Source: Candidatus Iainarchaeum sp. (lineage in GTDB: Archaea; B1Sed10-29; WALL01). From it: a DNA stretch of 64,000 nt. The position numbers and the translations under genes were made by a program. This document shows positions 11,801 to 63,730 of the stretch, in pieces. The stretch covers positions 18,689 to 82,688 of the forward strand of contig JAGMCR010000017.1 of NCBI GenBank assembly GCA_023129115.1. Reading direction: 5' to 3'. Every line of letters begins with the position of its first letter. Within the stretch, counting starts at the first letter, position 1. The notes beneath the pieces are model-generated. The model worked only from the letters and a program-made list of their open reading frames with translations. It searched no databases and was not told where the DNA came from.

Positions 11801-12155
11801 GGAACACGAGCCGCTTCACAACAAGTTTCGCCCCCTCCTCGGGGGGTGGCATCGAGTTGATGCCACCCCCCAATTCCCTGTCGCCAGAAATGCTGTAGTT
11901 GCCGTGGCAGTACTCTGCCTCCTGCCCGAGCTTGGCGGTGTCGATTGTCTGCGGCACCACCCTGCCCACGCTTCTGTCGAACTGGGCGAGGCACTTCGGG
12001 TCATTTATCAGGCGGTCGCTCGCGGCGATGAGCCTCGCCTGCCCCTCTGCGGTGGAGTGCATGCCCAGTGTGGAGCCAACCACCAAGTGCGTCCACAGGA
12101 GGCACATCTGCACCAGCAGCAGCACGAGGAAGAACGCTATGGAAGCGTCAATCAT
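11757..12155 (-). CDS. putative pilin-like / membrane-anchored small protein
   Basis: Internal Met of ORF 11757-12308 (the upstream Arg-rich extension looks spurious). It begins MIDASIAFFLVLLLV, preceded in frame by RGQAW. Confidence 0.35.
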   Translation of the reverse strand: MIDASIAFFLVLLLVQMCLLWTHLVVGSTLGMHSTAEGQARLIAASDRLINDPKCLAQFDRSVGRVVPQTIDTAKLGQEAEYCHGNYSISGDRELGGGINSMPPPEEGAKLVVKRLVFLGEEGGEVGVLAVW

Positions 12156-22653: not shown

Positions 22654-22992
22654 ATGCCGGTGCTTGACGCCGCAGCAATCATAAACGCCAAGCTGGCGGA
22701 AGGCGTGACAGTGCCCGAAGTCCTTGGCGAGCTCAAGGACTTCGAGTCCAGGGAACTCGCACAGGCAATGGTCTCCGAAGGAAGGCTGAAAGTCCTCTCC
22801 CCATCCAAAGACTCCGTCGATGCCGTGCGCGACGCGGCGTCCCCCCGCCTCTCGGAGACAGACCTGCAGGTCCTCGCGCTTGGGTTCGAGCTAAAAGAAG
22901 AAATAGTCACCGACGACTATTCGCTCCAGGCCTCGGCCAAGCGGCTCGGGCTGAAGTTCCGCCCCGTAATCTTCGAGGGAATCACTCACTGA
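22654..22992 (+). CDS. small PIN-domain-like protein
   Basis: 112 aa; acidic residues in a D...E...D arrangement (LDAAAI...SETDLQVLALG...TDDYS). The fold assignment is tentative. Confidence 0.4.
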   Translation: MPVLDAAAIINAKLAEGVTVPEVLGELKDFESRELAQAMVSEGRLKVLSPSKDSVDAVRDAASPRLSETDLQVLALGFELKEEIVTDDYSLQASAKRLGLKFRPVIFEGITH

Positions 22993-23770
22993 ACTCTTCC
23001 TCTAGCACGGGCTCGCCCATGAACGACTCGCTCAGCAGAATGCCGATTTCCTTGCGGTACCACACCACCATGGCGAGCAAAATCAATCCCGCAATCATGT
23101 AGACGGGGTTGCCGTACTTCTCCCGGATTTCGCTGGTTATGCTGCGGAGCGAGAGCTGGCTCTGCAGCGGAATCTCTTTCTCGTACAATACCCGGAACTT
23201 GCCGCTAGTGAACGGCTTCTTGTAGTTCCACTCGTAGTAAGTCACTTTCTGGCCGCTGGCGTCGAGCCCCGGCGCAGTGGAATAGGCCGGCGGCGTGACC
23301 TCTCTCGCGAGCCGCAGCGTGATTGGCATCCCGATTTTGAGCGTCGTCGGTGGGTCGTACGGCAGCGAAATCGTGCTGCCGTCAAAGAAAGTGAACGCGT
23401 TTTCGGTGATTCCCGTCAATTCCTGCTTCCCGACTTTCTCGACGGCCTCTACAACCTCGGGCACGGTGTACTGCAGCACCACGACGCCGAAGTCGGACTG
23501 TGTCAATTCCATCACGACGTTCTCGTCAGTGGTCTCGTAAGTAATCACTTTCGAAATCCCGTACGCGCCGAGGTCCGGGAAGCTCGCGCCGTCCTTCACG
23601 AGCGCCTCGAACTCCTTTCCCTCGCCGCTGTCCAGCCGCAGGAAATACTCCTGCTCAACGTAGGCAGACCCGTCCTCGTGCAGGCCTATCCTGATCTCGT
23701 GGTCAATCACCTGCGCGGCTAGGCAAGTCGAAATAATCAGCAGCAAGGCAAGCACGCGCTTCATTGCCAT
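22982..23770 (-). CDS. secreted, C-terminally membrane-anchored hypothetical protein
   Basis: N-terminal signal peptide MAMKRVLALLLIISTCLAAQ and a C-terminal TM helix with a basic stop-transfer sequence. Confidence 0.5.
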   Translation of the reverse strand: MAMKRVLALLLIISTCLAAQVIDHEIRIGLHEDGSAYVEQEYFLRLDSGEGKEFEALVKDGASFPDLGAYGISKVITYETTDENVVMELTQSDFGVVVLQYTVPEVVEAVEKVGKQELTGITENAFTFFDGSTISLPYDPPTTLKIGMPITLRLAREVTPPAYSTAPGLDASGQKVTYYEWNYKKPFTSGKFRVLYEKEIPLQSQLSLRSITSEIREKYGNPVYMIAGLILLAMVVWYRKEIGILLSESFMGEPVLEEEFSE

Positions 23771-23832
23771 AAATAGCGGTATTGTTGTATTTATGGGTAT
23801 GGCTTTTATTGTTGTAACCCCTAACTATCGCT

Positions 23833-24441
23833 GTGGTCGAGAAAGTCGAGAAACGAAGGGAGATAACGTCGCTGTACAGGCGGATTGGCCAGCACGGAAA
23901 AATAACCCATTTGCAGAAGGCCCTGGAGGAAGCCAAGCCGGAAAGGGAGCTGGCTTTCCTCAAGTTCGTCGACAAGCACGTTGGCACAATTCCCGAGGAC
24001 CACAAGCCGACCATCTGCTTTCACGGCCTTGCAAAGCCCCTGTTAACACTCGAAAAAGACGAGGACTTTGACGCCGTGTTATTTTTGGTCGGCAAGCAGC
24101 TTTCCTCGTTTCCCGGGGACAGGAAAATTGATGTAATCTATGGCCTCGAACCCATGGTCGGCCAGTTGTCCAAGTTCCAAAAAACTGGGAGAGTCTCTCG
24201 CATGGTGCGCTTCTTGAACACGCATTTGCAGTCCATACCCCAAGAAAACAAGGAGAGGGTGCTGCAAACCACGCCCCACACAATTAATTCCTTTATGCGG
24301 CTGGACGAGGACCTCTTCCCCACGGCTTTGGGCATAGCCGACAAGCACTTTGCCTCTGTCCCAGACCGCAACAAGGCGTCCGTCTTCACGAGCGACTTAC
24401 CAAAGATATGCGATATGCTTTACGGCCTCTACAGAAAATGA
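23833..24441 (+). CDS. hypothetical protein (GTG start)
   Basis: 202 aa; no family recognised. Confidence 0.45.
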   Translation: MVEKVEKRREITSLYRRIGQHGKITHLQKALEEAKPERELAFLKFVDKHVGTIPEDHKPTICFHGLAKPLLTLEKDEDFDAVLFLVGKQLSSFPGDRKIDVIYGLEPMVGQLSKFQKTGRVSRMVRFLNTHLQSIPQENKERVLQTTPHTINSFMRLDEDLFPTALGIADKHFASVPDRNKASVFTSDLPKICDMLYGLYRK

Positions 24442-24450
24442 CGCGCCAGC

Positions 24451-24849
24451 TTATTCCCGCACCCTCTTCCACACTGCTTCAAGCAGCATCGCGAGCAAGT
24501 AAAAATACGTGGTGAACCAGAACAGGGACCACGCCCAGAAGCCCAATATGGACAATACGTCTCCGTGTATCGCCCCGGCGAAAATCACTATCCCAACTGC
24601 CATTAGCAGGCTCGGCGGCGCGTAAAGCGGGAACGTCACAAAGGAATAGGCCTCCTCCACCGCTTGGTACGCAAAGTACGCTTCCGAGTACTCGGCGAAC
24701 GCTTCATCACACGCAGGGTTTTTTTCGTAAAAGCTGCGCTGGCACTGTGGCTCTGTGGGCCGCAGCAGCATTGGCCCCGCGAATACAACCAAAAGCATTG
24801 CCGCCACGAGCAGCAGCCTCGTTTTGTTCGGTCGCCAGTTAATTTTCAT
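24451..24849 (-). CDS. hypothetical membrane protein
   Basis: 132 aa with four TM segments; its start overlaps the stop of the downstream gene (ATGA). Confidence 0.45.
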   Translation of the reverse strand: MKINWRPNKTRLLLVAAMLLVVFAGPMLLRPTEPQCQRSFYEKNPACDEAFAEYSEAYFAYQAVEEAYSFVTFPLYAPPSLLMAVGIVIFAGAIHGDVLSILGFWAWSLFWFTTYFYLLAMLLEAVWKRVRE

Positions 24850-25619
24850 ATCTCTATCTTCATAAACTCGTGTATTACTTTGGTGATATTGGACAAGGTT
24901 TCCCTGTAGTCCTCTTTCGTGAGGCGTGTGTAGTCCTTTTTTCTCTCGCTTCCCTTCTCAGTCACGTAAGAAACTGTGACACTTGGCACTCTTATGAGAT
25001 GGGCTGACGCCACGAGACATGCAGTCTCATAATCCCCATAAACACTTGGCCCTTCATTCTCTGCGAAGGAATCCCAGAGTTCATCCCACAATTCAAACGG
25101 GTGCTCCTTGAACCTCCCTGGCTTGAGTCCGTAGCGGCTGTAGACCTCGCCACCATGGACCTTCAAGCCCATGCCTCTCGCCACCTGTTTCATCTTCTCG
25201 GAAAGGCCTTCATCAAACAACTCCGGGTTGCCCGGCACGTTGTTGTCCCTGCAAATCCCACAAAGCTCTATGAAGCTCGGGTCGTCTGAATAGGCTCTCG
25301 ACGGCACAACTAAATCGCCAGGTTCTGCTTCTGAACTGCATGTGGCTTGGCAACACCCAAAATAGACAATGAACGGCTTTCCGTCAAATTCTATCAAGTC
25401 GTCATAAACCAGCGATACTCCTAAAGCCTGGTTGTATCCATAGCCACCAAAAAGCGCAAACAGCTTTTTTCCGTTCACTTCAGTTTCATAGAACAAGTCA
25501 GCAAAATTCTTGTGCACGAATTTTTTCTTCATCGCGGCTGCTGGTTCCCCGAAGTCGAACTCTTTCATTAATGTTTCCACCGCCAGCTTATCAGTCCTGG
25601 CAGTCATTATGACCGGCAT
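24846..25619 (-). CDS. nucleoside phosphorylase family protein (PNP/UDP/MTAP fold)
   Basis: GDYETACLVASAHLIRVPSVTVSYVTE resembles the E-x-E...ISD C-terminal signature of PNP_UDP_1. The C-terminus ...HEFMKIEI is shared with the RNase Z end repeats. Confidence 0.5.
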   Translation of the reverse strand: MPVIMTARTDKLAVETLMKEFDFGEPAAAMKKKFVHKNFADLFYETEVNGKKLFALFGGYGYNQALGVSLVYDDLIEFDGKPFIVYFGCCQATCSSEAEPGDLVVPSRAYSDDPSFIELCGICRDNNVPGNPELFDEGLSEKMKQVARGMGLKVHGGEVYSRYGLKPGRFKEHPFELWDELWDSFAENEGPSVYGDYETACLVASAHLIRVPSVTVSYVTEKGSERKKDYTRLTKEDYRETLSNITKVIHEFMKIEI

Positions 25620-25623
25620 ACAA

Positions 25624-25849
25624 TCAAATCTCTATCTTCATAAAGTCCTTCGCGACAATAACATTGTCAAACAGCTGGATCTCAGCTGGCACGATAGACT
25701 TGGGGGGTGCCATTCGGCACCCCCCAGAGGCAGGCATCAAATCTCCAGCCTCATAAAGTCCTTCGCGACAATAACATTGTCAAACAGCTGAATCTCAGCT
25801 GGCACGATAGACTTGGGGGGTGCCATTCGGCACCCCCCAGAGGCAGGCA
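25624..25849. repeat. two tandem 113-bp direct repeats, each comprising the last ~17 codons plus stop of the RNase Z gene and a 61-nt segment with a perfect hairpin (GGGGGGTGCC-ATTC-GGCACCCCCC)
   Basis: Copies at 25624-25736 and 25737-25849 are near-identical; the third, original copy is the rnz 3' end at 25850-25905. Hairpins at 25702-25725 and 25815-25838. Confidence 0.85.
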
Positions 25850-26752
25850 TCAGATTTCCAGCCTCATAAAGTCCTTCGCGACTATGACGTTATCAAACTC
25901 TTTCTTCGCGTCCTGCAGCAATTTGTCCAATTCCTCTTCCTTGTACCTCGTCGAGAAGTGCGTGAGCACCAATTGCCTCACGTTCGCCTGGCGAGCGACC
26001 TCGCCCGCGTCCCGCGCGGTCGAGTGCGTGGCGTCCCTCGCGCGGTCACTGGCGTCCTGAGCAAAAGTCGAGTCGTGCACCAGCAAGTCCGCGCCCTCCG
26101 CAGCCTTTATCGTGGAGTCACACATCTCGGTGTCGCCCGTGTAAACAAACTTGATTCCCTTTTCCCGCGTCACGTAGTCCGCCGGCTTCAATTTCTTGCC
26201 CTTCCACTCCACGGTCTTGCCGGCCTTCAAGTCCCCGTACAATGGCCCCGGATTAAGCCCAATCTTCCGCAGCTTTTTCTCGTCCGCGTGCAGCCGCTCC
26301 TTCTCCTGGAACACGTAGCCGAAGCCCGGCCGCGAGTGCTTTGTTGGAAACGCGGACACGGTGAACTCGGGCTCGTCGACAACCACTCCTTCCTTGACCT
26401 CCTCGACCACGAGCTCGAACGTCTTTTTGCCCTGCTCCACCAGCCGCATCACGTCCTCGACCAGCGTCTTGATGCCCTTTGGGCCGTAGATATAGAGCGG
26501 CTCCGTCCTCTCGCGCCAATAATTGGACTGGATAAACCCAATGAGCCCAAAGTAGTGGTCGCCGTGGAAGTGCGTGATGAACACGCGGCTAATCTTCATG
26601 GGGCTGAGCTTGGCAATCGCGAGCTGGCGCTGCGTGTTTTCCCCGCAGTCGAACAAGAACCTGTGCTCGTTGTACTGGAAATGGATTCCGGGGTGGTTCC
26701 GGTCCGGCATCGGGATTCCGCAGCTAGTGCCAAGGAATACGACTTCTGCCAT
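25850..26752 (-). CDS. rnz: ribonuclease Z (tRNA 3' endonuclease, metallo-beta-lactamase fold)
   Basis: HFHGDH motif, about 300 aa as in archaeal RNase Z, C-terminal ...HFSTRY. Confidence 0.85.
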   Translation of the reverse strand: MAEVVFLGTSCGIPMPDRNHPGIHFQYNEHRFLFDCGENTQRQLAIAKLSPMKISRVFITHFHGDHYFGLIGFIQSNYWRERTEPLYIYGPKGIKTLVEDVMRLVEQGKKTFELVVEEVKEGVVVDEPEFTVSAFPTKHSRPGFGYVFQEKERLHADEKKLRKIGLNPGPLYGDLKAGKTVEWKGKKLKPADYVTREKGIKFVYTGDTEMCDSTIKAAEGADLLVHDSTFAQDASDRARDATHSTARDAGEVARQANVRQLVLTHFSTRYKEEELDKLLQDAKKEFDNVIVAKDFMRLEI

Positions 26753-32667: not shown

Positions 32668-32701
32668 TGGCTGAAGCTATGCCCCCAGGGAGTATTAAAG
32701 C

Positions 32702-35700
32702 ATGCCGAAGAAAAGAGTGGCAAAGAAGAAACCGGTGAAGAAGAAAGCCGCGGCAAAGAAAAAAGCTCGGGGGGCGCCCACGGCAAAGCCGGCGGCGCCC
32801 CCCAAAGCAGCGAAGCCGCGGGCAAAGCCTTTGACGAAGACCACACAGTCCCTCCCCATCACCATCAAGTCCACGGCCGAAATCAAAATCCCTGCCAAGA
32901 CAGTGGATCAGGTCCTCGGCCAGGAAAAGGGCGTCGAGATAGTCAAGAAGGCTGCGCGCCAGCGGCGCAACGTCTTCCTCCTCGGCGAGCCTGGCACTGG
33001 CAAGTGCGTCGCCCCGGAAACCTTAATAACACTTGCCGGTGGGGAAGTACTGCCTGCAGAGTCTGTGTTCAATCGAGCAAAAACAAATGGCATTATCGTT
33101 ACACAGGATTCAGACAGAACATTACTTTCTGACACGGGCTTAAGGACGTTATCCATTAACAGGAAAAACGTAAAATTAACAGAGGAAGACGTGCTCTATG
33201 CAGCAAGGTTCAAGAATCTAAAGCAATTATTCAGAATCAAGACTTCTCTTGGTTCTGAGGTAACTCTTACGGATAATCATCCATTGCTCACTATAACAAA
33301 AAGGGGTGAGTTGAAGTGGGTGCCTGCCAAGGATTTGTCAAAGGGGGGTAGGATAGCTAGTGCGAGAAGCGTCACATTCCCGGAGATAACTGACATAGAT
33401 TTCATTGACGACCTTGATGGAGACATTACCTTATGCATACTGGATAGAGAGTTCGGTCTAGAGGAGGCAAAGAAGAAAAAAGTATCTTATGACAAGATAA
33501 GCCACATCAGATACAAAACAAGTGTTACTGATTCCTCCTCAAAAAAAGTCAAGGTGGTGGGCAACTGGAGCGAGGAACTAGGCAGATTCTTAGCGTATAT
33601 GCTTTCAGAGACGTCTATAACAAGGGATAGGAACATTATTTTCACAAACAACGACAAAGCAGCAGTAACAGACTTCGCGTTTTTGGCTCACTCACTCTTT
33701 GGAATTAGATTCAACGTAGCGAAGAGGAAAGAGCATTGGTATGCTCAAGCCAGTTCTTCATCACTTTGCCGTTTTTTGAACCAAGTCTTTGACGTAGCGT
33801 TATCCTCTCCCAACAGGTCTCACATCACAAAATTCCCGCGCCGGATGTTGTCCGCACCACTGCCAGTCCTTGCCGCGTTCATAAGGACTTACTATGATAT
33901 GGAAGGCCATGTGCAAAAGCCGCGCAGGCGGTGTATGGAACTCTGTAGTGGAAGTAAAGAATTTACCAGGGTTATGCAGATTGCACTGCTAAGGTTTGGC
34001 ATAATATCGAGATTAAAGACAAGATACAATGCTGCTACAAATACCAAGGGCAAGAAAAGGAGAAAATATTATTACCTTTTCATATTCGGCGCTGAAAATC
34101 TAAGGAAGTTCAGGGGTTCCATTGGTCTCCACAGCGGTAGGAAGAGAGAACGCCTTGAAAGGTCTATTGTTATAAAGCCCAATCCAAATTTGGATGTAGT
34201 CCCCAATATTTTCGAGGACTTAAAGTTTTTGAAGGAAAAACTAGAGTTCAAGAATACTGACGTGACAGATTACCCTGCTACATTTTCTCGTTATGTCCAT
34301 GGAAAAAGAGAGCCTAGTAGGAGGGGGCTTGCCGATATAACTGAAAAAATTGCTAACGTGTACTTAAGCAAGCAGAAAGTGGCAGGAGTCTATGATGAGG
34401 AAGTAGAAGACACAATCATAAAGTTGTCCTGTCTTACAGATTCTGATATATACTGGGACAAGATTGAGAGCATAACAAAAACCAAAAGTAGCGATTATGT
34501 CTATGATTTCACGGTTCCAACAAACCACAGTTTCTTGGCTGGCAATATCCTGCTGCATAACTCCATGCTTGGCCTCGCGATGGCCGAGCTCCTGCCGGTG
34601 AGCAAGCTGCAGGACGTCCTTGTCTACCCCAATCTTGGCGACCCGAACCAGCCAAAAATAAAAACCGTCAAGGCCGGCAAGGGCCTAAAAATTGTCGAGG
34701 AAGAGACCAAGAAGGCCATGGAGGGCGGCAGCTCCAAGCAGATGGCCGGCTTCATCGCGTTCCTCTTCCTCTTGTCAATCCCGTGGGTATTGCTCTGGCT
34801 TGGGTGGCTCAGCGAGCTGCTCGCCGCGGCGTGCCTCATCGTGGCGGGCATGCTCGGAATCGGCGTAGTCATCGGGATGCAGATGCGGCCCCGCACAGAC
34901 AACACGGCGCCAAAGCTCCTGGTGGACAACTCCCGCCAGAAGCACGCGCCTTTCATCGAGGCGACTGGCGCCAAGGCCGGCGCGCTCTTGGGCGACGTGA
35001 AGCACGATCCGCTCCAGTCCGGCGGCCTCGGCACTCCCGCCCACCTCCGGGTCATCGCGGGCATGATCCACCGCTCGCACCTCGGCGTATTGTTCATCGA
35101 CGAAATTGGCACGTTGTCAGCAAAGTCCCAGCAGGAATTATTGACCGCGATGCAGGAGAGGAAGTTCTCAATCACCGGGCAGAGCGAAATGTCGTCAGGA
35201 GCAATGGTGCACACTTCGCCCGCGCCGTGCAATTTCGTGCTCGTCGCCGCGGGCAACCTGCTCGACCTGAAGAACATGCACCCCGCATTGCGGAGCCGCA
35301 TCCGCGGCTACGGCTATGAGATCTACCTGAACGAGAAGATGCCGGACACTCCGGAGAACCGCGTGAAAATCGCGCAGTTCATCGCGCAGGAAGTCCAAAA
35401 GGACGGCAAAATCCCGCACTTCTCGCGTGCGGGCGTCGAGGCCGTCATCCGCGAGGCGCAGAAGCGCGCTGGGAGGAAGGGCAAGCTGACCGTGAAGCTC
35501 CGCGAGCTCGGTGGGCTCGTCCGGGCCGCGGGCGACATCGCTCGCGCAGACGGCTCTGCGCTCGTCGAGCCGAAGCACATCAAGGCCGCGAAGAAACTGG
35601 CGCGCACGATGGAGCAGCAGCTCGCGGACCAGTACATCTCCCAGAAGAAGGAATACGAAGTCTTTTCAACAAGCGGCAAGAAAGTGGGCAAGGTAAACGG

Positions 35701-36265
35701 CCTCGCCATCATGGGCGACGGCGGCATTGTCCTCCCCATCGAGGCAGAGGTCGCGCCGGCGCACTCCAAGAGCGAGGGCAAGCTAATCGCGACGGGCAAG
35801 CTCGGCGAAATCGCGCGCGAGGCAGTCACCAATGTCTCCGCCATCGTGAAGAAGTACAAGGGCACTGACATCTCCCGCCGCGACATCCACGTGCAGTTCC
35901 TCCAGACCTATGAGGGGGTGGAGGGCGACTCGGCGAGCGTTTCGGTTGCCACAGCATTAATCAGCGCGCTCGAGGAACTGCCGGTGGACCAGAGCATTGC
36001 CATGACGGGCTCGCTTAGCGTGCGCGGCGAGGTCCTCCCGGTCGGGGGAATCACCCCGAAAATAGAGGCGGCAATCGGCGCGGGCATGAAGACAGTCATA
36101 ATCCCCGAGGCGAACAGGGACGACATCCTGCTCTCGCCCGAGGACTCCAAGAAAATCCGCATCATAACCGCGGCCAACCTCTATGACGTGCTCTCCAGCG
36201 TCCTGGCCAGCTCCAAGAAGAAGCCGGCCCTTTTGAAGAAAATCAAGCGCATCGTGAGCCGATAG
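32702..36265 (+). CDS. lonB: archaeal membrane-bound Lon protease (LonB) carrying an in-frame intein within the Walker A motif
   Basis: Lys-rich N-terminus; Walker A GEPGTGK is interrupted and resumes with [12 protein letters not shown]. Walker B LFIDEIG, a TM insert and protease motif GDSASV follow. Confidence 0.9.
33005..34561 (+). mobile_element. intein (519 aa) with LAGLIDADG-type homing-endonuclease blocks inside lonB
   Basis: Cys1 ([10 protein letters not shown]...), C-terminal ...ILLHN with +1 Ser. Blocks [10 protein letters not shown] and [11 protein letters not shown] are present, and the P-loop GTGKS is reconstituted on removal. Confidence 0.8.
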
Positions 36266-36273
36266 CTTTTTTA

Positions 36274-44320: not shown

Positions 44321-45724
44321 GTGATTATAATGAAGCGCCTACTACTGCTATGCCTGTTGCTCGCCAGCGTGTTCGCCGCGTCTCTCGGCACCACGTTCGA
44401 AATCGACCTGGGCGATCCCATAACTCTTTCTGGGTCTAACTTTGCGTTGGTCTCGGTCAATGTTTCCTTCATGCCCGGCCAGACTAGCTTCATTGTTGTT
44501 GACGTCGACGACGAAGAGCACACTATTGACTTTTTGGGTTACGTTGAGACTGATGGCTTCACAATCAAGTGGACCGACACGATGGTTGGGACCGGCGCGA
44601 CCAGCGCATACCTCCACGTCACCGAAATAGTCTCAATCTCTCTCGACACGAGTTTTACCCTCAACACTAAAACAACGCCCAAGGCGCGTTATGGCTCAAT
44701 GATGATTGAGCTGACCGAGACTTACCAAAGCTCCCTGCCTGGGGTGCCCTCGACAGCGACCGTAAAGATTGACGGCAGCGAGGAAACCATCGCCATCGGA
44801 GGGAACACTACTGCGGGAGACTACATACTCTCCGCCGAGTCAATTTCCTTCGGCTCTCCTGACGACGTCACTTTCTTGCTCAGCTCTCCCCCGGCAGAAG
44901 AAGCTCCTGAAGTAACGCCTACTCCAACCCCTGAGCCAACTCCCACCGCCACTCCAGAGCCGACACCAACTCCCGAGCCAGACAGCGGCACATCCACGCC
45001 CCAGGCAATTGGCGGCACATCCACTCCAACCCCAACTCCCGCACCGATGTTAATCGCAGCCCCCCGGGCAATCAGGGCAGTTCCGGTTGCCATCGTGGCT
45101 CCGGTCGCCAGCAGCACCGCGGTCACCGCCAAAATCCAGGCAACACGCATCGCGGAAACCACTTCCCAGGTTAGGGCGCACAGCGCGGCCGGCAACAAAA
45201 TCACTTACCAGGTCGAGGGCAACGCGACTTCACAAGGATACCTTCAAGTATCCAATGCGCCACGCAAGCCGAAGCAAGTCAAGTTCGACGGCGCGGAAAT
45301 CCCGGAGTGCAGCGTTTCGCTCCTGCAGACCTGCATCACCGCCATCCTGGGCGGCGGGGCCACAGAGGACTGCCTCTGCTGGACTTACAACGAGGCGGAC
45401 ACCCAAGTGGAAATCTTTTATCCGCACTCCGAGCACACGATTGAAATCGATTTCGGGGAAGAAGGCGAGGCGGCAACCCCCACCCCAACTCCAGAGCCTA
45501 CTCCAACCCCAACCGGGGAGTCGCCAACTGGCGACTCCCCCAGTGGCTCCGATGGCGAGTCCACAGACGGCGGCTCCACTCTGCTGTACATTGTTGTGGC
45601 ACTCGTAATCATTGTGCTCGCCGCAGGCGCGTTCTTCTTCCTCCGCAAGAAAAAGCCGCCGGCTCCTGAACTGGACTACACAAAAGAAAGCACCACCCAG
45701 CTTGACTACTCAAGCGAAGAGTAA
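44321..45724 (+). CDS. cell-surface protein with a Pro/Thr-rich linker and a C-terminal TM anchor
   Basis: Signal peptide, (TPTPEP)n linkers, and a C-terminal TM followed by RKKK. Confidence 0.6.
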   Translation: MIIMKRLLLLCLLLASVFAASLGTTFEIDLGDPITLSGSNFALVSVNVSFMPGQTSFIVVDVDDEEHTIDFLGYVETDGFTIKWTDTMVGTGATSAYLHVTEIVSISLDTSFTLNTKTTPKARYGSMMIELTETYQSSLPGVPSTATVKIDGSEETIAIGGNTTAGDYILSAESISFGSPDDVTFLLSSPPAEEAPEVTPTPTPEPTPTATPEPTPTPEPDSGTSTPQAIGGTSTPTPTPAPMLIAAPRAIRAVPVAIVAPVASSTAVTAKIQATRIAETTSQVRAHSAAGNKITYQVEGNATSQGYLQVSNAPRKPKQVKFDGAEIPECSVSLLQTCITAILGGGATEDCLCWTYNEADTQVEIFYPHSEHTIEIDFGEEGEAATPTPTPEPTPTPTGESPTGDSPSGSDGESTDGGSTLLYIVVALVIIVLAAGAFFFLRKKKPPAPELDYTKESTTQLDYSSEE

Positions 45725-62022: not shown

Positions 62023-62104
62023 ATACCATGGGTGGCACGGCCGTGTCGGCCGTGAATACCTGCGTTCCGCACACGGCTGACACAGCCGTGCCACACAGCC
62101 GGTG

Positions 62105-62164
62105 TGTGGCACCGGCTTCCAGCCGGTGGGACGTCCGGCACGGGGGCCGGACGCTACATTTGCC
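62105..62164. repeat. 60-nt repeat R1 (copy A): tgtggcaccggcttccagccggtgggacgtccggcacgggggccggacgctacatttgcc
   Basis: Near-identical copy B at 63491-63549 in direct orientation; it contains the two short hairpins ccggc-ttcca-gccgg and gtccggc-acggggg-ccggac. Confidence 0.8.
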
Positions 62165-62175
62165 AGTGGTGCCGC

Positions 62176-63402
62176 CTACTTTTCCTGCCCCCACAACTGG
62201 GCCAGTTCGGTCAGCATCTTCACCGACGTCTCCATCTGCTCCAGGCAGGCGAACTCCAGCTCGGAGTGGAAATTGTGCATGCCGGTCGAGATGTTCGGCG
62301 TCGCCAGACCCATCTCGCTCAGGCGGGAGCCGTCGGTGCCGCCGCGGATGGACTCGTACTTCGGCGTGTGGCCGAGCTTCTTGTAGGCCTCTTCGGCCAG
62401 CTTGACGGCCCGCGGTTCGCTCGCGAGGTGCTCGATCATGTTGCGGTACTGCTTCTTGACCTCAACATTGATCTTGGCCTTGGGGTGCGCGGCCTGGACC
62501 TCGGCGGCGGCCTTCTTGAGCAGCTCGGCCTGCTGAGCCAGGTCGTCGGTCACGAAGCTCCGCAGCAGTATCTTGATCCTTAGCTCCGGCACGCCGCCCT
62601 CGATGATGTACGGGTGCAGGAACTGCTCGCGGTCCTTGGTCATCTCCGGCGACATCTCTTTGGGCAGCTTTTCGAGGAACTCGCCTGCCAGACGAATGGC
62701 GTTGACCATCTTGCCGTAGGCCAGGCCGGGGTGGATGTTGACGCCGGTGATGGTGACGGTGGCCAGGTCGGCGGAGAAGGTCTCGTTTTCGAGCCCGCCG
62801 CTGCCCTCGCCGTCGAGCGTGTAGGCACAGACGGCGTTGATGGTCTTGATATCGACCTTATCGGTGCCGCGACCGACCTCCTCGTCGCCGGTGAAGAAGA
62901 CGCGGATGGGGCCGTGCTTGAGGTCGGGATTGCTCATGAGGTGGGCGGCGGTGGTCAAGATGACCGCGATGCCGGCCTTATCGTCGGCGCCGAGCAGGGT
63001 GGTGCCGTCCGAGGTGATGACGGTCTTGCCCTTCAGCTCGGCCAGGCCCTTGGTCTCATCCACCTTGATGACCTTGGACGTGTCGCCGGGCAGGACGATG
63101 TCCTGGCCGTCGTAGTTTTCGAGGATTTGCGGCTTGACGTCTTTGCCGCTGGCTTCGGGCGAGGTGTCCTTGTGGGCCAGCCAGGCGATGGTGGGGGCGC
63201 CGGCGACGTTGCCGGGGATCGTGCCCATGACGTTGCCGGCCTCGTCCATGCCGACGTTCGCGAGCCCCAGGGTCTTCATCTCATCGACCAGCATCTTGCC
63301 CAGCTCAAGCTGCCCGGGCGAACTCGGATATTGGTCGGTCTCCTCAACGGCGGTGGTCTCCACCTTGACATAACGACAAAAGCGATCCAACAACGTGTCC
63401 AC
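62176..63402 (-). CDS. pepT: peptidase T (tripeptide aminopeptidase, M20B)
   Basis: 408 aa with M20 metal-ligand context (HKDT, GADDKAG, GDEEVG, ...EME.../H). Confidence 0.85.
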   Translation of the reverse strand: MDTLLDRFCRYVKVETTAVEETDQYPSSPGQLELGKMLVDEMKTLGLANVGMDEAGNVMGTIPGNVAGAPTIAWLAHKDTSPEASGKDVKPQILENYDGQDIVLPGDTSKVIKVDETKGLAELKGKTVITSDGTTLLGADDKAGIAVILTTAAHLMSNPDLKHGPIRVFFTGDEEVGRGTDKVDIKTINAVCAYTLDGEGSGGLENETFSADLATVTITGVNIHPGLAYGKMVNAIRLAGEFLEKLPKEMSPEMTKDREQFLHPYIIEGGVPELRIKILLRSFVTDDLAQQAELLKKAAAEVQAAHPKAKINVEVKKQYRNMIEHLASEPRAVKLAEEAYKKLGHTPKYESIRGGTDGSRLSEMGLATPNISTGMHNFHSELEFACLEQMETSVKMLTELAQLWGQEK

Positions 63403-63490
63403 GATACGCCTCCAGTTCAGTCTTCAAATATGCAACCAAAATTAGGTAACCTACTCTATCCAATCTGTGACACCGGCTTCCAGCCGACAT

Positions 63491-63549
63491 TGTGGCACCG
63501 GCTTCCAGCCGGTGGGACGTCCGGCACGGAGGCCGGACGCTACATTGCC
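63491..63549. repeat. 60-nt repeat R1 (copy B), plus degenerate partial copies at 63470-63490 and 63556-63580
   Basis: 58 of 60 positions identical to copy A; the two copies flank pepT. Confidence 0.8.
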
Positions 63550-63589
63550 GTGTAGCACAGGCTTCCAGCCTGTGGGTGGCTTATGTGTG

Positions 63590-63730
63590 CCACTGCTCTT
63601 GAGCAGTGCCCAGGCTATCGCCGTGTGCCACTGCTCTGTGAGCAGTGCTTGGCACACGGTGGACAAAGACACTGCTCACAGAGCAGTGGCACACGGTGGA
63701 CAAAGACACTGCTCAAGAGCAGTGGCACAC
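63590..63730. repeat. cluster of palindromes and about 2.4 tandem copies of a 36-nt unit (gagcagtggcacacggtggacaaagacactgctca..)
   Basis: The inverted repeats gtgccactgctctgtgagcagtg / cactgctcacagagcagtggcac lie within it. Confidence 0.6.

Follow-up and report, generated by a model that had tools for sequence, protein, structure and literature searches.

A repeated array of hairpin spacer and gene-tail copy behind the RNase Z gene of a Candidatus Iainarchaeum archaeon, a candidate product of locus-specific recombination

The window, a stretch of 64,000 nucleotides from a Candidatus Iainarchaeum contig (JAGMCR010000017.1), carries on its minus strand a full-length gene for RNase Z (rnz) with a repeat array directly behind it (Table 1). 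The rnz product matches the TIGR02651 profile at 346 bits (cut-off 293) over profile positions 1-302 of 302, and its Pfam matches are Lactamase_B_2 and Lactamase_B_4. Along the minus strand the order is rnz, two units that each consist of a 65-nt, two-hairpin spacer (M) followed by 48 nt copied from the rnz tail, and, 4 nt further on, gene X. A tandem duplication of the rnz 3' end had been reported in a preliminary description of this DNA and is confirmed here by two methods. Tandem Repeats Finder places a repeat of period 113 at 25623-25898, with 2.4 copies and 93% matches, and a repeat search gives the same family with a fourth, partial copy at 24845-24894. The period of 113 bp stands as first given, while the other dimensions had to be corrected: the spacer is 65 nt and not 61, the gap before gene X is 4 nt and not 9, and the repeated tail comprises 15 codons and a stop codon (48 nt) rather than about 17 codons. 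Spacer M1 folds at -34.6 kcal/mol (z = -4.7), with an equally good fold in 0 of 200 shuffles, and the exact 24-nt hairpin occurs twice in the window and not at all in shuffles. Each unit is spanned by an open reading frame, the second of which is annotated as a gene in a sister assembly; in an exact look-up, the unit peptides had matches only in these same assemblies. Based on the tail alignment, T_B is a mosaic that follows T_A in its 5' part, the real tail (T_C) in the middle and T_A again at its end.

Table 1. Features of the rnz array, its downstream genes and a third M-like copy (window coordinates)
Feature	Position	Strand	Description	Basis
Third M-like copy	11826..11890 (hairpin 11841-11871)	+	ctcctc-GGGGGGTGGCATC-gagtt-GATGCCACCCCCC-aattccctgtcgccag; no gene-tail duplication	
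Signal-peptide gene	22982..23770	-	262 aa; directly after, or overlapping, the rnz stop in the simplest relatives	
202-aa ORF	23833..24441	+	without family match; absent from all related loci	
Gene Y	24451..24849	-	membrane-like ORF, 132 aa; start overlaps gene X stop (ATGA)	
Gene X	24846..25619	-	PNP_UDP_1-like, 257 aa	Pfam PF01048, weak match, residues 35-252 on profile 26-231/233
Tail copy T_A	25624..25671	-	FDNVIVAKDFMKIEI and stop (..FMKIEI); 4 nt before gene X ATG at 25619	
Unit ORF 2	25624..25737	-	37 aa; ATG overlaps previous stop; ends 4 nt before gene X ATG	
Spacer M2	25672..25736	-	65 nt, 1 nt off M1; 100-N gap of the public scaffold inside this unit	sequence
Tail copy T_B	25737..25784	-	FDNVIVAKDFMRLEI and stop	alignment
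Unit ORF 1	25737..25850	-	37 aa; ATG overlaps rnz stop (TGATG); reads across M1 and enters T_B in frame with the tail	
Spacer M1	25785..25849	-	65 nt	fold and pattern search
M1 hairpin 2	25785-25801	-	cagctga-gat-tcagctg	pattern search
M1 hairpin 1	25815-25838	-	GGGGGGTGCC-gaat-GGCACCCCCC	pattern search
Real rnz tail T_C	25897..25850	-	ends in FDNVIVAKDFMRLEI and stop	sequence
rnz	25850..26752	-	RNase Z, 300 aa, full length	TIGR02651 RNase_Z equivalog

The number of extra units is a lower bound. The ENA copy of the scaffold differs from the window by one SNP and by a 100-N gap inside unit 2, where the window has no Ns. Since the two units are joined across this gap, the true number is at least two, and since T_B has M on both sides in both versions of the scaffold, at least two units are real. 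Logan contigs from the same run are broken within the repeat, and a sister-sample contig has one unit only, which may reflect a real difference or a collapsed assembly; the variation in copy number among assemblies may likewise be collapse. That the repeat units themselves arose by mis-joining is scarcely credible. The N gap of the public scaffold, which the window lacks, a further N gap in the array of a relative (L059) and the breaks in the Logan contigs would fit such an artefact, but tail, spacer and tail are contiguous in independent assemblies from different samples and lineages (L005, L058 and L065), the units carry lineage-specific substitutions, and the M-flanked T_B is a variant in its own right. 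Repeat arrays of this kind break short-read assemblies at rnz, and their copy number in public MAGs is not to be trusted.

Gene X ends in a piece of the rnz tail. Its last six codons and stop codon contain 17 nt (24850-24866) identical to the rnz tail and to T_A, and 0.03 matches of this exact 17-mer are expected by chance. A gene X that ends in an rnz-tail fragment is also found in a related single-cell genome, AM-311-L14, where the layout is rnz tail, gene X and tail fragment, with ATTCATGA/ATTCATGA microhomology at the junction; the junction of T_A and gene X in the window is orthologous to that of the rnz tail and gene X in this relative. The FMKIEI end of gene X is thus a captured piece of the rnz tail, left by an older insertion that the relative shares and not by the hairpin element. 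Gene X is 80.7% identical in nucleotide sequence between the two genomes and the flanking genes are 74-81% identical, which indicates that it is old and vertically inherited, and its insertion into the tail region predates the split of the two genomes. An indexed protein search gave one detectable homologue of gene X, and its native C-terminus was compared by Pfam alignment only. Gene Y is absent from the locus of the relative. Together with gene X and the 202-aa ORF it makes up a stretch of lower GC, and searches of these three inserted genes against PHROG and NCBIfam gave no matches.

Comparison of 11 related Candidatus Diapherotrites rnz loci places the array in a series. In L060, rnz overlaps a gene of the 262-aa type directly (TGATG), and in L057 the two are separated by 30 nt. 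Another sub-clade shares the 48-nt tail duplication and the Phe codon at which it starts but has a hairpin spacer of another sequence, and the units number two in L058, at least three in L059 and one in L065. The spacers of L058 are identical to each other, and the spacer of this sub-clade is homologous to native intergenic sequence that follows rnz in L062. In L061 and L066, as in the window, M starts exactly 2 nt past the rnz stop codon. The 8 nt visible between M and the contig end in L061 are not a tail copy, and the unit ORF is broken; in L066 the tail copy is only 22 nt long and is out of frame with the spacer ORF. L064 also has a GC hairpin after rnz.

The alignment of these loci shows concerted evolution of the tail copies and the real tail. 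At columns 21, 37 and 45, L058 has other states than L065, and within each of these genomes the real tail and the copy agree. Column 30 is T in all four copies of the window and C in both copies of the single-cell genome, and at columns 8-9 GC is kept in both copies (L058 and L065), with AT in the real tails. The units are head-to-tail, and at columns 21, 30, 37 and 45 the copies are more alike within genomes than between them, as in tandem repeats that undergo concerted evolution. The active homogenisation that had been proposed as one reason for the near-identity of the copies is borne out across the tail alignment.

Spacer M is a low-copy dispersed hairpin module. In agreement with the earlier suggestion of a small structured element, M recurs outside this array at window position 11841, at two loci of a related single-cell genome (L040 and L043) and after rnz in L061 and L066. 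Its stems carry compensatory changes, and it lies in either orientation relative to neighbouring genes; the comparison comprises 5-6 distinct copies, and MAFFT misplaces one gap in L061. Copies of the short form are about 90% identical across different loci of different genomes, and the M of the window is closer to a copy at another locus in another genome (about 90%) than to the one that its closest relative has at the orthologous site. Such an affinity points to some mobility or conversion of M, which lies outside the main model given below. A scan of genome contigs for the exact-stem hairpin gave 50 loci, and only L040 and L043 have common flanks; the other 48 were dropped as unrelated GC hairpins of high-GC bacteria. 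Since the scan needs exact stems, it misses window 11841, L061 and L066 and therefore underestimates the spread of the family. The bare hairpin pattern had no matches in JGI metagenome contigs or in IMG/VR. Within the window, a GC hairpin at 45515-45540 was rejected as a copy of M, as it sits in a Pro/Thr-rich coding linker and has unrelated flanks, and a 25-nt direct repeat beside the 11841 hairpin (72% identity) is weak and was put down to chance. The sequence at about 23815-23835 (cagcgatagttaggggt, compared with cagctgataggggt in L061) may be left over from the right end of M and is too short for use.

Several dispersed copies in a genome and its relatives are typical of MITE-like and REP-like elements. 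The copies at window 11841, L040 and L043 and the identity of the short form between loci of different genomes would suit a miniature mobile element whose insertion makes a long, 48-nt target-site duplication. This origin of the array is highly improbable and already largely refuted, since M lacks flanking duplications at L040, at L043 and at window 11841, the 8 nt visible after it in L061 are not tail, the same tail duplication occurs with a spacer other than M, and the called genes within 10 kb on either side include no transposase domain. M also has internal hairpins only, with no terminal inverted repeats of the MITE type, and its flanks at five loci have no consistent duplication or terminal repeat. 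Because M is present elsewhere without tail duplication and the same duplication is present with an unrelated spacer, tail copying is a property of the junction between rnz and the downstream gene and not of the hairpin element; the earlier idea of an element that copies the gene end in which it lands is not supported, on the same grounds.

The tail might instead be a chromosomal attachment site, at which a site-specific recombinase inserts circles with a tail-like attP, so that the hairpin units, gene X and the units of the other sub-clade would be integron-like or IMEX-like cassettes or their remnants. Direct repeats of the gene 3' end, of 48 nt and 17 nt, surround every insert (M, the other spacer and gene X), always at rnz, as in att duplication; the three tails T_C, T_B and T_A fit a mosaic of attL, attP and attR at 46 of 48 positions, and the stretch of gene X, gene Y and the 202-aa ORF has lower GC. 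The 48-nt boundary is, moreover, common to two sub-clades, and if the duplication had two origins, random recombination would leave the identical boundary unexplained and a site-specific process would be indicated. We nevertheless consider an attachment site unlikely. Unequal crossover gives the same mosaic, a 113-bp unit is too small for an element, the vertical inheritance of gene X speaks against a cassette, and the junctions have no integron core sites (GTTRRRY). Neither the inserted genes nor the 10 kb on either side contain an integrase or recombinase domain, and Pfam lists for the called genes in the same interval include no integrase, transposase, Cas or reverse transcriptase domains. 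In IMG/VR, where archaeal DPANN viruses are poorly sampled, there are 0 matches for the tail or the hairpin.

Four defined classes were rejected by their own features. An integron cassette array was set aside since there is no IntI-type tyrosine recombinase within 10 kb and the junctions cagctG/TTTGAC and ggtcG/TTCGAT misfit GTTRRRY. The array is not a CRISPR, as had been stated before: the spacers are near-identical, differing by 1 of 65 nt, the repeat consists of the final 48 nt of rnz itself, and no Cas domains lie within 10 kb. A diversity-generating retroelement would need a reverse transcriptase, of which there is none within 10 kb; the mismatches between T_B and T_C (C, T, T, T, G and T in the sense strand) are not confined to adenine, and the repeat is 48 nt. 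The hairpin is not a bacterial-type intrinsic terminator, since no U-run is present and the bases after the stem-loop are AAGTC on one strand and AGAGG on the other.

The reading that we prefer, with a probability of about 0.55, is that the array is a locus-specific recombination product and not an autonomous element: an old insertion with duplication, whose unit number has been shifted by unequal recombination and whose copies are homogenised by gene conversion. The recombination scar, which the preliminary description gave as its alternative, comes closest to the outcome of the comparison of orthologous loci. In an ancestor of this Diapherotrites clade, rnz would have been tightly coupled to the next gene, with its stop codon overlapping the start. 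As a first step, a hairpin-forming segment would have been inserted right after the rnz stop codon, the last 48 nt of rnz being duplicated with it; this segment would be the dispersed module M in one sub-clade and a native intergenic piece in another. Since the duplication accompanies the insertion, the C-terminus of RNase Z is left intact and the downstream gene keeps its rnz-tail upstream context. Gene X was later inserted at a tail copy and fused to its last six codons, leaving a 17-nt direct repeat, as the comparison with the relative shows. The number of spacer-and-tail units would shift by unequal homologous recombination between tail copies, and a T_B with the sequence of T_A on its left and that of T_C in its middle is expected of an unequal crossover. 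Gene conversion holds the copies similar to the real, selected tail, as the lineage-specific substitutions common to the real tail and its copy show.

The array probably persists because the tail copy preserves the stop/start context of the downstream gene. Each unit ORF starts on the previous stop codon and ends at the next start, so that ribosomes and the start context would be carried across the hairpin, which itself is probably an RNA-level or DNA-level structure with a 3'-end, processing or insulating role. Three spacer variants have unit ORFs that are open and in frame; an open frame would arise by chance with probabilities of 0.57, 0.22 and 0.40, each times 1/3 for the frame. The non-tail sequence after M in L061 and the short, out-of-frame tail in L066 mean that this idea of a bridging ORF fails in places.

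The units might also be functional in themselves, as peptides of 37-42 aa that contain the RNase Z C-terminal strand, or through hairpins that are processing sites, for example for RNase Z, and regulate rnz and the downstream gene. The retention, in three spacer variants, of ORFs whose start codons lie on the stop before them, the compensatory changes in the hairpins, the persistence of the architecture across the clade and the GC hairpin after rnz in L064 all agree with such a function. It is quite unlikely, however, since peptides from different sub-clades have unrelated N-terminal parts, the ORF is broken in L061 and out of frame in L066, M occurs in either orientation, the loops are unlike tRNA T-loops, and gene conversion alone accounts for coding-like tail copies. 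The window has no gathering-level match in Rfam 15 (the best relaxed matches score 13-16 bits against cut-offs of 44-80), and a tRNA scan of it found nothing. A broader and very doubtful proposal is that the rnz 3' end is a dedicated landing pad. Hairpin modules and the PNP-like gene would enter it through some mechanism, site-specific or guided by homology, in which the tail is regenerated every time, and this DPANN archaeon would then have an integron-like cassette site that is poor in recombinases. On such a landing pad, RNase Z-dependent processing at the GC hairpins could also separate rnz from the cassettes.

The array that we regard as a recombination product shares features with several known systems. 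Vibrio cholerae T6SS effector-immunity arrays have been explained by homology-facilitated illegitimate recombination in a conserved segment (PMC5361080). As in the C-terminal tips of Rhs and CdiA and in T6SS orphan arrays, the 3' segment of a gene is reiterated downstream, with a copy preceding each displaced or inserted module, and the first copy completes the working gene. Unlike those arrays, the modules at rnz are short, non-coding, near-identical hairpin spacers and one housekeeping-type gene instead of toxin and immunity pairs, and the host gene is an essential tRNA-processing enzyme, for which no logic of competitive replacement is apparent. Integrative elements that target the 3' ends of tRNA or protein genes, such as SCCmec at rlmH, also have direct repeats flanking the insert, a reconstituted gene and tandem insertions that multiply the repeats; here, however, no integrase, element body or attP-bearing replicon was found, and the units are 113-125 bp. 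M resembles REP/BIME, ERIC, Correia and Rickettsia palindromic elements in being a short GC-rich hairpin at several loci, at gene ends or inside ORFs, in either orientation and with compensatory changes. It differs from them in its low copy number (3 in 64 kb, two of them at rnz), and neither terminal inverted repeats nor target duplications nor a transposase associated with it were found. With minisatellites under concerted evolution the array has in common head-to-tail units, an unstable or uncertain unit number, mosaic tails and homogenisation within the genome, but its unit boundary coincides with the end of a gene, and the units form a stop-to-start chain of ORFs from one gene to the next.

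In archaeal operons, translation can be coupled through overlapping stop and start codons (ATGA, TGATG) by termination and reinitiation. The locus is like such operons in that rnz, the two unit ORFs, gene X and gene Y are linked in this order by TGATG, TGATG, a 4-nt gap and ATGA, and unlike them in that the linkage passes through filler ORFs derived from a duplicated gene tail, the coupling being predicted from these overlaps. To our knowledge, coupling through filler ORFs made of a duplicated gene tail is undescribed, and we know of no palindromic-element family described for this archaeal lineage; the locus defines a small family of hairpin modules in it. The genomes of DPANN archaea are very small and densely packed, and the entry of new DNA into them and the tolerance of their operons to insertions are little understood. 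The relatives form a natural series that runs from loci with no insert through those with one or several units to one with an added gene; it shows insertion beside an essential gene without damage to that gene, and gene conversion that keeps a non-genic copy of the gene end coding-like.

The window contains one strong tandem array, at positions 25623-25898, with a period of 113 bp, 2.4 copies and 93% matches (Tandem Repeats Finder). The array lies at the 3′ end of rnz, a full-length RNase Z gene (TIGR02651, 346 bits, profile positions 1-302 of 302), and the genes of this region have the minus strand as their sense strand. Each unit consists of a spacer module, M, followed by a copy of the rnz tail. 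Two hairpins are present in each spacer, GGGGGGTGCC-gaat-GGCACCCCCC and cagctga-gat-tcagctg, and the spacer folds at -34.6 kcal/mol (z = -4.7), a stability reached by 0 of 200 shuffles. Two matches to the 24-nt hairpin are found in the window, against none in shuffled sequences. According to the repeat finder and a reading of the sequence, the preliminary description of these repeats is correct except for small numbers: it gave 61 nt instead of 65 for the spacer and 9 nt instead of 4 for the gap to gene X, the PNP_UDP_1-like gene downstream.

Features of the rnz array and the second hairpin site in the window, and arrangement behind rnz in related genomes
Feature	Position	Strand	Description
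rnz	26752..25850	minus	300 aa, C-terminus FDNVIVAKDFMRLEI-stop
Spacer M1	directly after rnz	minus	65 nt
Tail copy T_B	after M1	minus	48 nt, equal to the last 15 codons and stop of rnz
Spacer M2, then tail copy T_A	after T_B	minus	T_A terminates in MKIEI-stop
Gene X ATG	4 nt past T_A	minus	257 aa
M-like hairpin with M-like flanks	11826-11890		13-bp stem GGGGGGTGGCATC/GATGCCACCCCCC
L060			rnz stop overlaps start of 262-aa-type gene (TGATG)
L057			30 nt from rnz to 262-aa-type gene
AM-311-L14			rnz tail, gene X, 262-aa-type gene; hairpin unit absent
L065			rnz tail, 62-nt spacer, 48-nt tail copy, downstream gene
L058			two units of 125 bp each, 77-nt spacer
L059			at least three units of 125 bp each, 77-nt spacer

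The window belongs to a 269-kb metagenome-assembled scaffold of Candidatus Diapherotrites (DPANN). Over 20.9 kb, the ENA copy of this scaffold departs from the window at two places only, a SNP in M1 and 100 consecutive N in unit 2, so that the second unit of the window is a join across a gap and the array has at least two units. Logan contigs from the same sequencing run end inside hairpin 1 and resume inside T_A. A sister-sample contig, which equals the window from about nt 100 onward apart from unit number, spans rnz to gene X with one unit; this may be true variation or assembly collapse. In both scaffold versions T_B is a distinct variant with M on either side, and the tail-spacer-tail order is contiguous in independent assemblies as well. 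The structure of the array is real, while its length is uncertain.

A scan for the bare hairpin in one genome per prokaryotic species gave 50 loci, 48 of which are unrelated GC hairpins in high-GC bacteria. The other two, L040 and L043, lie 64 kb apart on one contig of "Archaeon SAG AM-311-L14", a single-cell genome whose rnz is 79% identical to that of the window. L040 has the entire 62-nt module at about 90% identity, with a compensatory G-C to T-A change in hairpin 2, and lies antisense to its two flanking neighbours, a stomatin-type gene and tRNA-His. L043, between divergent genes, has hairpin 1 and AAGTC only. A third window copy of M, found by scanning for GGGG-initiated hairpins, is located at 11841-11871; its flanks are related and its stem has a C-G to G-C swap. 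The hairpin is contained in the final ~30 codons of a pilin-like ORF on the minus strand, which reads through it, and the next pilin-like gene lies about 40 nt downstream of it. Two further relatives, L066 and the closest one, L061, also have M behind rnz, starting exactly 2 nt past the stop as in the window; hairpin 1 has a compensatory G-C to A-T change in L061 and is shorter in L066. Since both loci have a longer form of M with an extra middle hairpin, the short form in the window is closer to a copy at another locus of another genome than to the orthologous copy of its nearest relative, which indicates spread or conversion among M copies. M has no Rfam match, relaxed thresholds included, the hairpin lacks a T-run behind it on both strands, and neither IMG/VR nor the JGI metagenome contigs contain the hairpin pattern.

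Several other sequences resemble M in part or are palindromic. At L040 (4180-4217), the 11-nt left end of M (atgcctctggg) appears again ~30 nt upstream, a partial duplication that involves the module end and no gene end. In the window, the sequence cagcgatagttaggggt (23815-23835, minus strand), which lies upstream of the 262-aa gene, resembles the right end of M and the next bases in L061 (cagctgataggggt); though too short for a judgement, it may be left over from an older junction between M and intergenic sequence. A GC hairpin with a perfect 11-bp stem at 45515-45540 (GGGGAGTCGCC-aact-GGCGACTCCCC), in the Pro/Thr-rich linker of a 467-aa membrane-anchored ORF, was rejected as a copy of M because its flanks are unrelated. 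Eight short GC-rich perfect palindromes with 8-10-bp stems, some repeated (e.g. CGTCCGGCACGG[GA]GGCCGGACG twice), cluster at 62036-63688 together with a 37-bp tandem repeat (63640-63730); they are intergenic, around a pepT-like peptidase gene, where gene content appears unlike the rest of the window.

It had been proposed that a hairpin element copies the gene end in which it lands. This idea is not supported, on two grounds: no gene-end duplication stands beside M at L040, L043 or 11841, and the same duplication occurs with a different spacer. In a comparison of eleven related rnz loci placed on an rnz neighbour-joining tree, L065, L058 and L059 have a spacer other than M; over its first ~55 nt this spacer is homologous to native intergenic DNA behind rnz in L062, and it likewise forms a long hairpin. 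The duplicated tail starts at the same Phe codon in both sub-clades, and in L066 a tail fragment of 22 nt (EFMKLEI-stop) stands behind M. Tail copies were confirmed at these loci and no others by a systematic scan; the duplication belongs to the rnz locus. GC-rich or long hairpins also lie shortly past rnz in L064 (2666-2688) and L062 (3901-3960), and several contigs end there, which suggests that structured or repeated DNA is frequent behind rnz across the clade and that it interrupts assemblies. Beside rnz in AM-311-L14, the M29 aminopeptidase gene (L056, 4674-5961) is split by a frameshift or sequencing error into ORFs of 181 and 271 aa, where the window has 428 aa. The window's LonB protease gene (approx. 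32700-36270; L001 488-4051) contains an intein (Intein_splicing and LAGLIDADG_3) that is absent from its orthologues in AM-311-L14 (649 aa) and L058 (622 aa).

In an alignment of 19 tails, columns 21, 37 and 45 distinguish L058 from L065, and within each genome the copy has the state of the real tail. At columns 8-9 the copies of both have GC where the real tails have AT, so that the duplication is older than the split of the two, and its 3′ two-thirds was homogenised afterwards. Column 30 is T in all four window copies and C in both AM-311-L14 copies. That the pseudo-tails differ by nothing but "synonymous" changes is accounted for by gene conversion from the selected real tail, and selection on the copies themselves is unnecessary. 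T_B is a mosaic that matches T_A on its left and the real rnz tail, T_C, in its middle, as expected from unequal crossover between these two. The main rival explanation, integrase-driven recombination at an attachment site, predicts the same mosaic through an attL/attP/attR scheme, so the mosaic does not separate the two models. Integration of this kind would gain weight if the 48-nt boundary had arisen twice independently, but there is no recombinase among the called genes within 10 kb and no element body, and no attP-bearing virus was found in IMG/VR.

Gene X ends in HEFMKIEI-stop and has an exact 17-mer in common with T_A (0.03 expected by chance), and its stop overlaps the start of the 132-aa gene Y (ATGA). 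AM-311-L14 gene X has the HEFMKIEI-stop end too, as a 17-nt repeat of its own rnz tail with ATTCATGA|ATTCATGA microhomology at the junction, and the sequence past it resembles that past rnz in L057. Nucleotide identity between the two gene X copies is 80.7%, within the 74-81% of the flanking genes, and the Pfam PNP_UDP_1 match reaches residue 252 of 257 (profile position 231 of 233). At the level of sequence comparison, the shared end, this identity and the reach of the match together establish that gene X was inserted at a tail copy before the window and AM-311-L14 lineages split, taking over the final codons of the tail together with its stop. The window lineage alone has gene Y and, beyond it, the 202-aa ORF; these two and gene X make up a stretch of lower GC content (0.44-0.54 against ~0.6 in the flanks), and none of the three has a phage or NCBI family match.

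Each unit in the window, L058 and L065 forms an ORF. Its ATG shares bases with the stop before it (TGATG or ATGA), and it runs in frame via the spacer into the tail copy and terminates at the following start codon or a few nt ahead of it. Two versions of the non-M spacer differ by 15 nt in length and keep the frame. When the spacers are shuffled, 57%, 22% and 40% of trials stay open, not counting the 1-in-3 frame chance, and the pattern, spotted post hoc, is suggestive. It fails in two genomes: L061 has a stop inside its long-form M, and the ORF of L066 finishes out of frame.

A history of recombination at a single gene junction accounts best for the data. A segment able to form hairpins would have been inserted right after the rnz stop with duplication of the 48-nt tail, perhaps once, before the sub-clades split. 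Insertion of gene X at a tail copy, as the comparison with AM-311-L14 shows, came later, unit number was likely altered by unequal recombination, and the copies were homogenised by the gene conversion seen among the tails. At Rhs, CDI and T6SS effector loci, displaced gene ends form arrays that have been explained by homology-facilitated illegitimate recombination (PMC5361080). These arrays, the attachment-site repeats of elements targeting gene 3′ ends, palindromic modules of the REP, ERIC and RPE types and ordinary minisatellite dynamics are the closest parallels of the rnz array, each an incomplete fit. The array is a new combination of known processes and nothing found requires a new mechanism, even though there is a modest chance that the locus hides a system for site-specific insertion or an RNA signal linked to RNase Z. 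To our knowledge, such arrangements are undescribed so far in this lineage. The arrangement leaves the RNase Z C-terminus intact, with a familiar stop/start context ahead of the downstream gene, and its persistence in streamlined genomes suggests that it is tolerated or useful. The rnz locus is a genuine and tidy evolutionary case.
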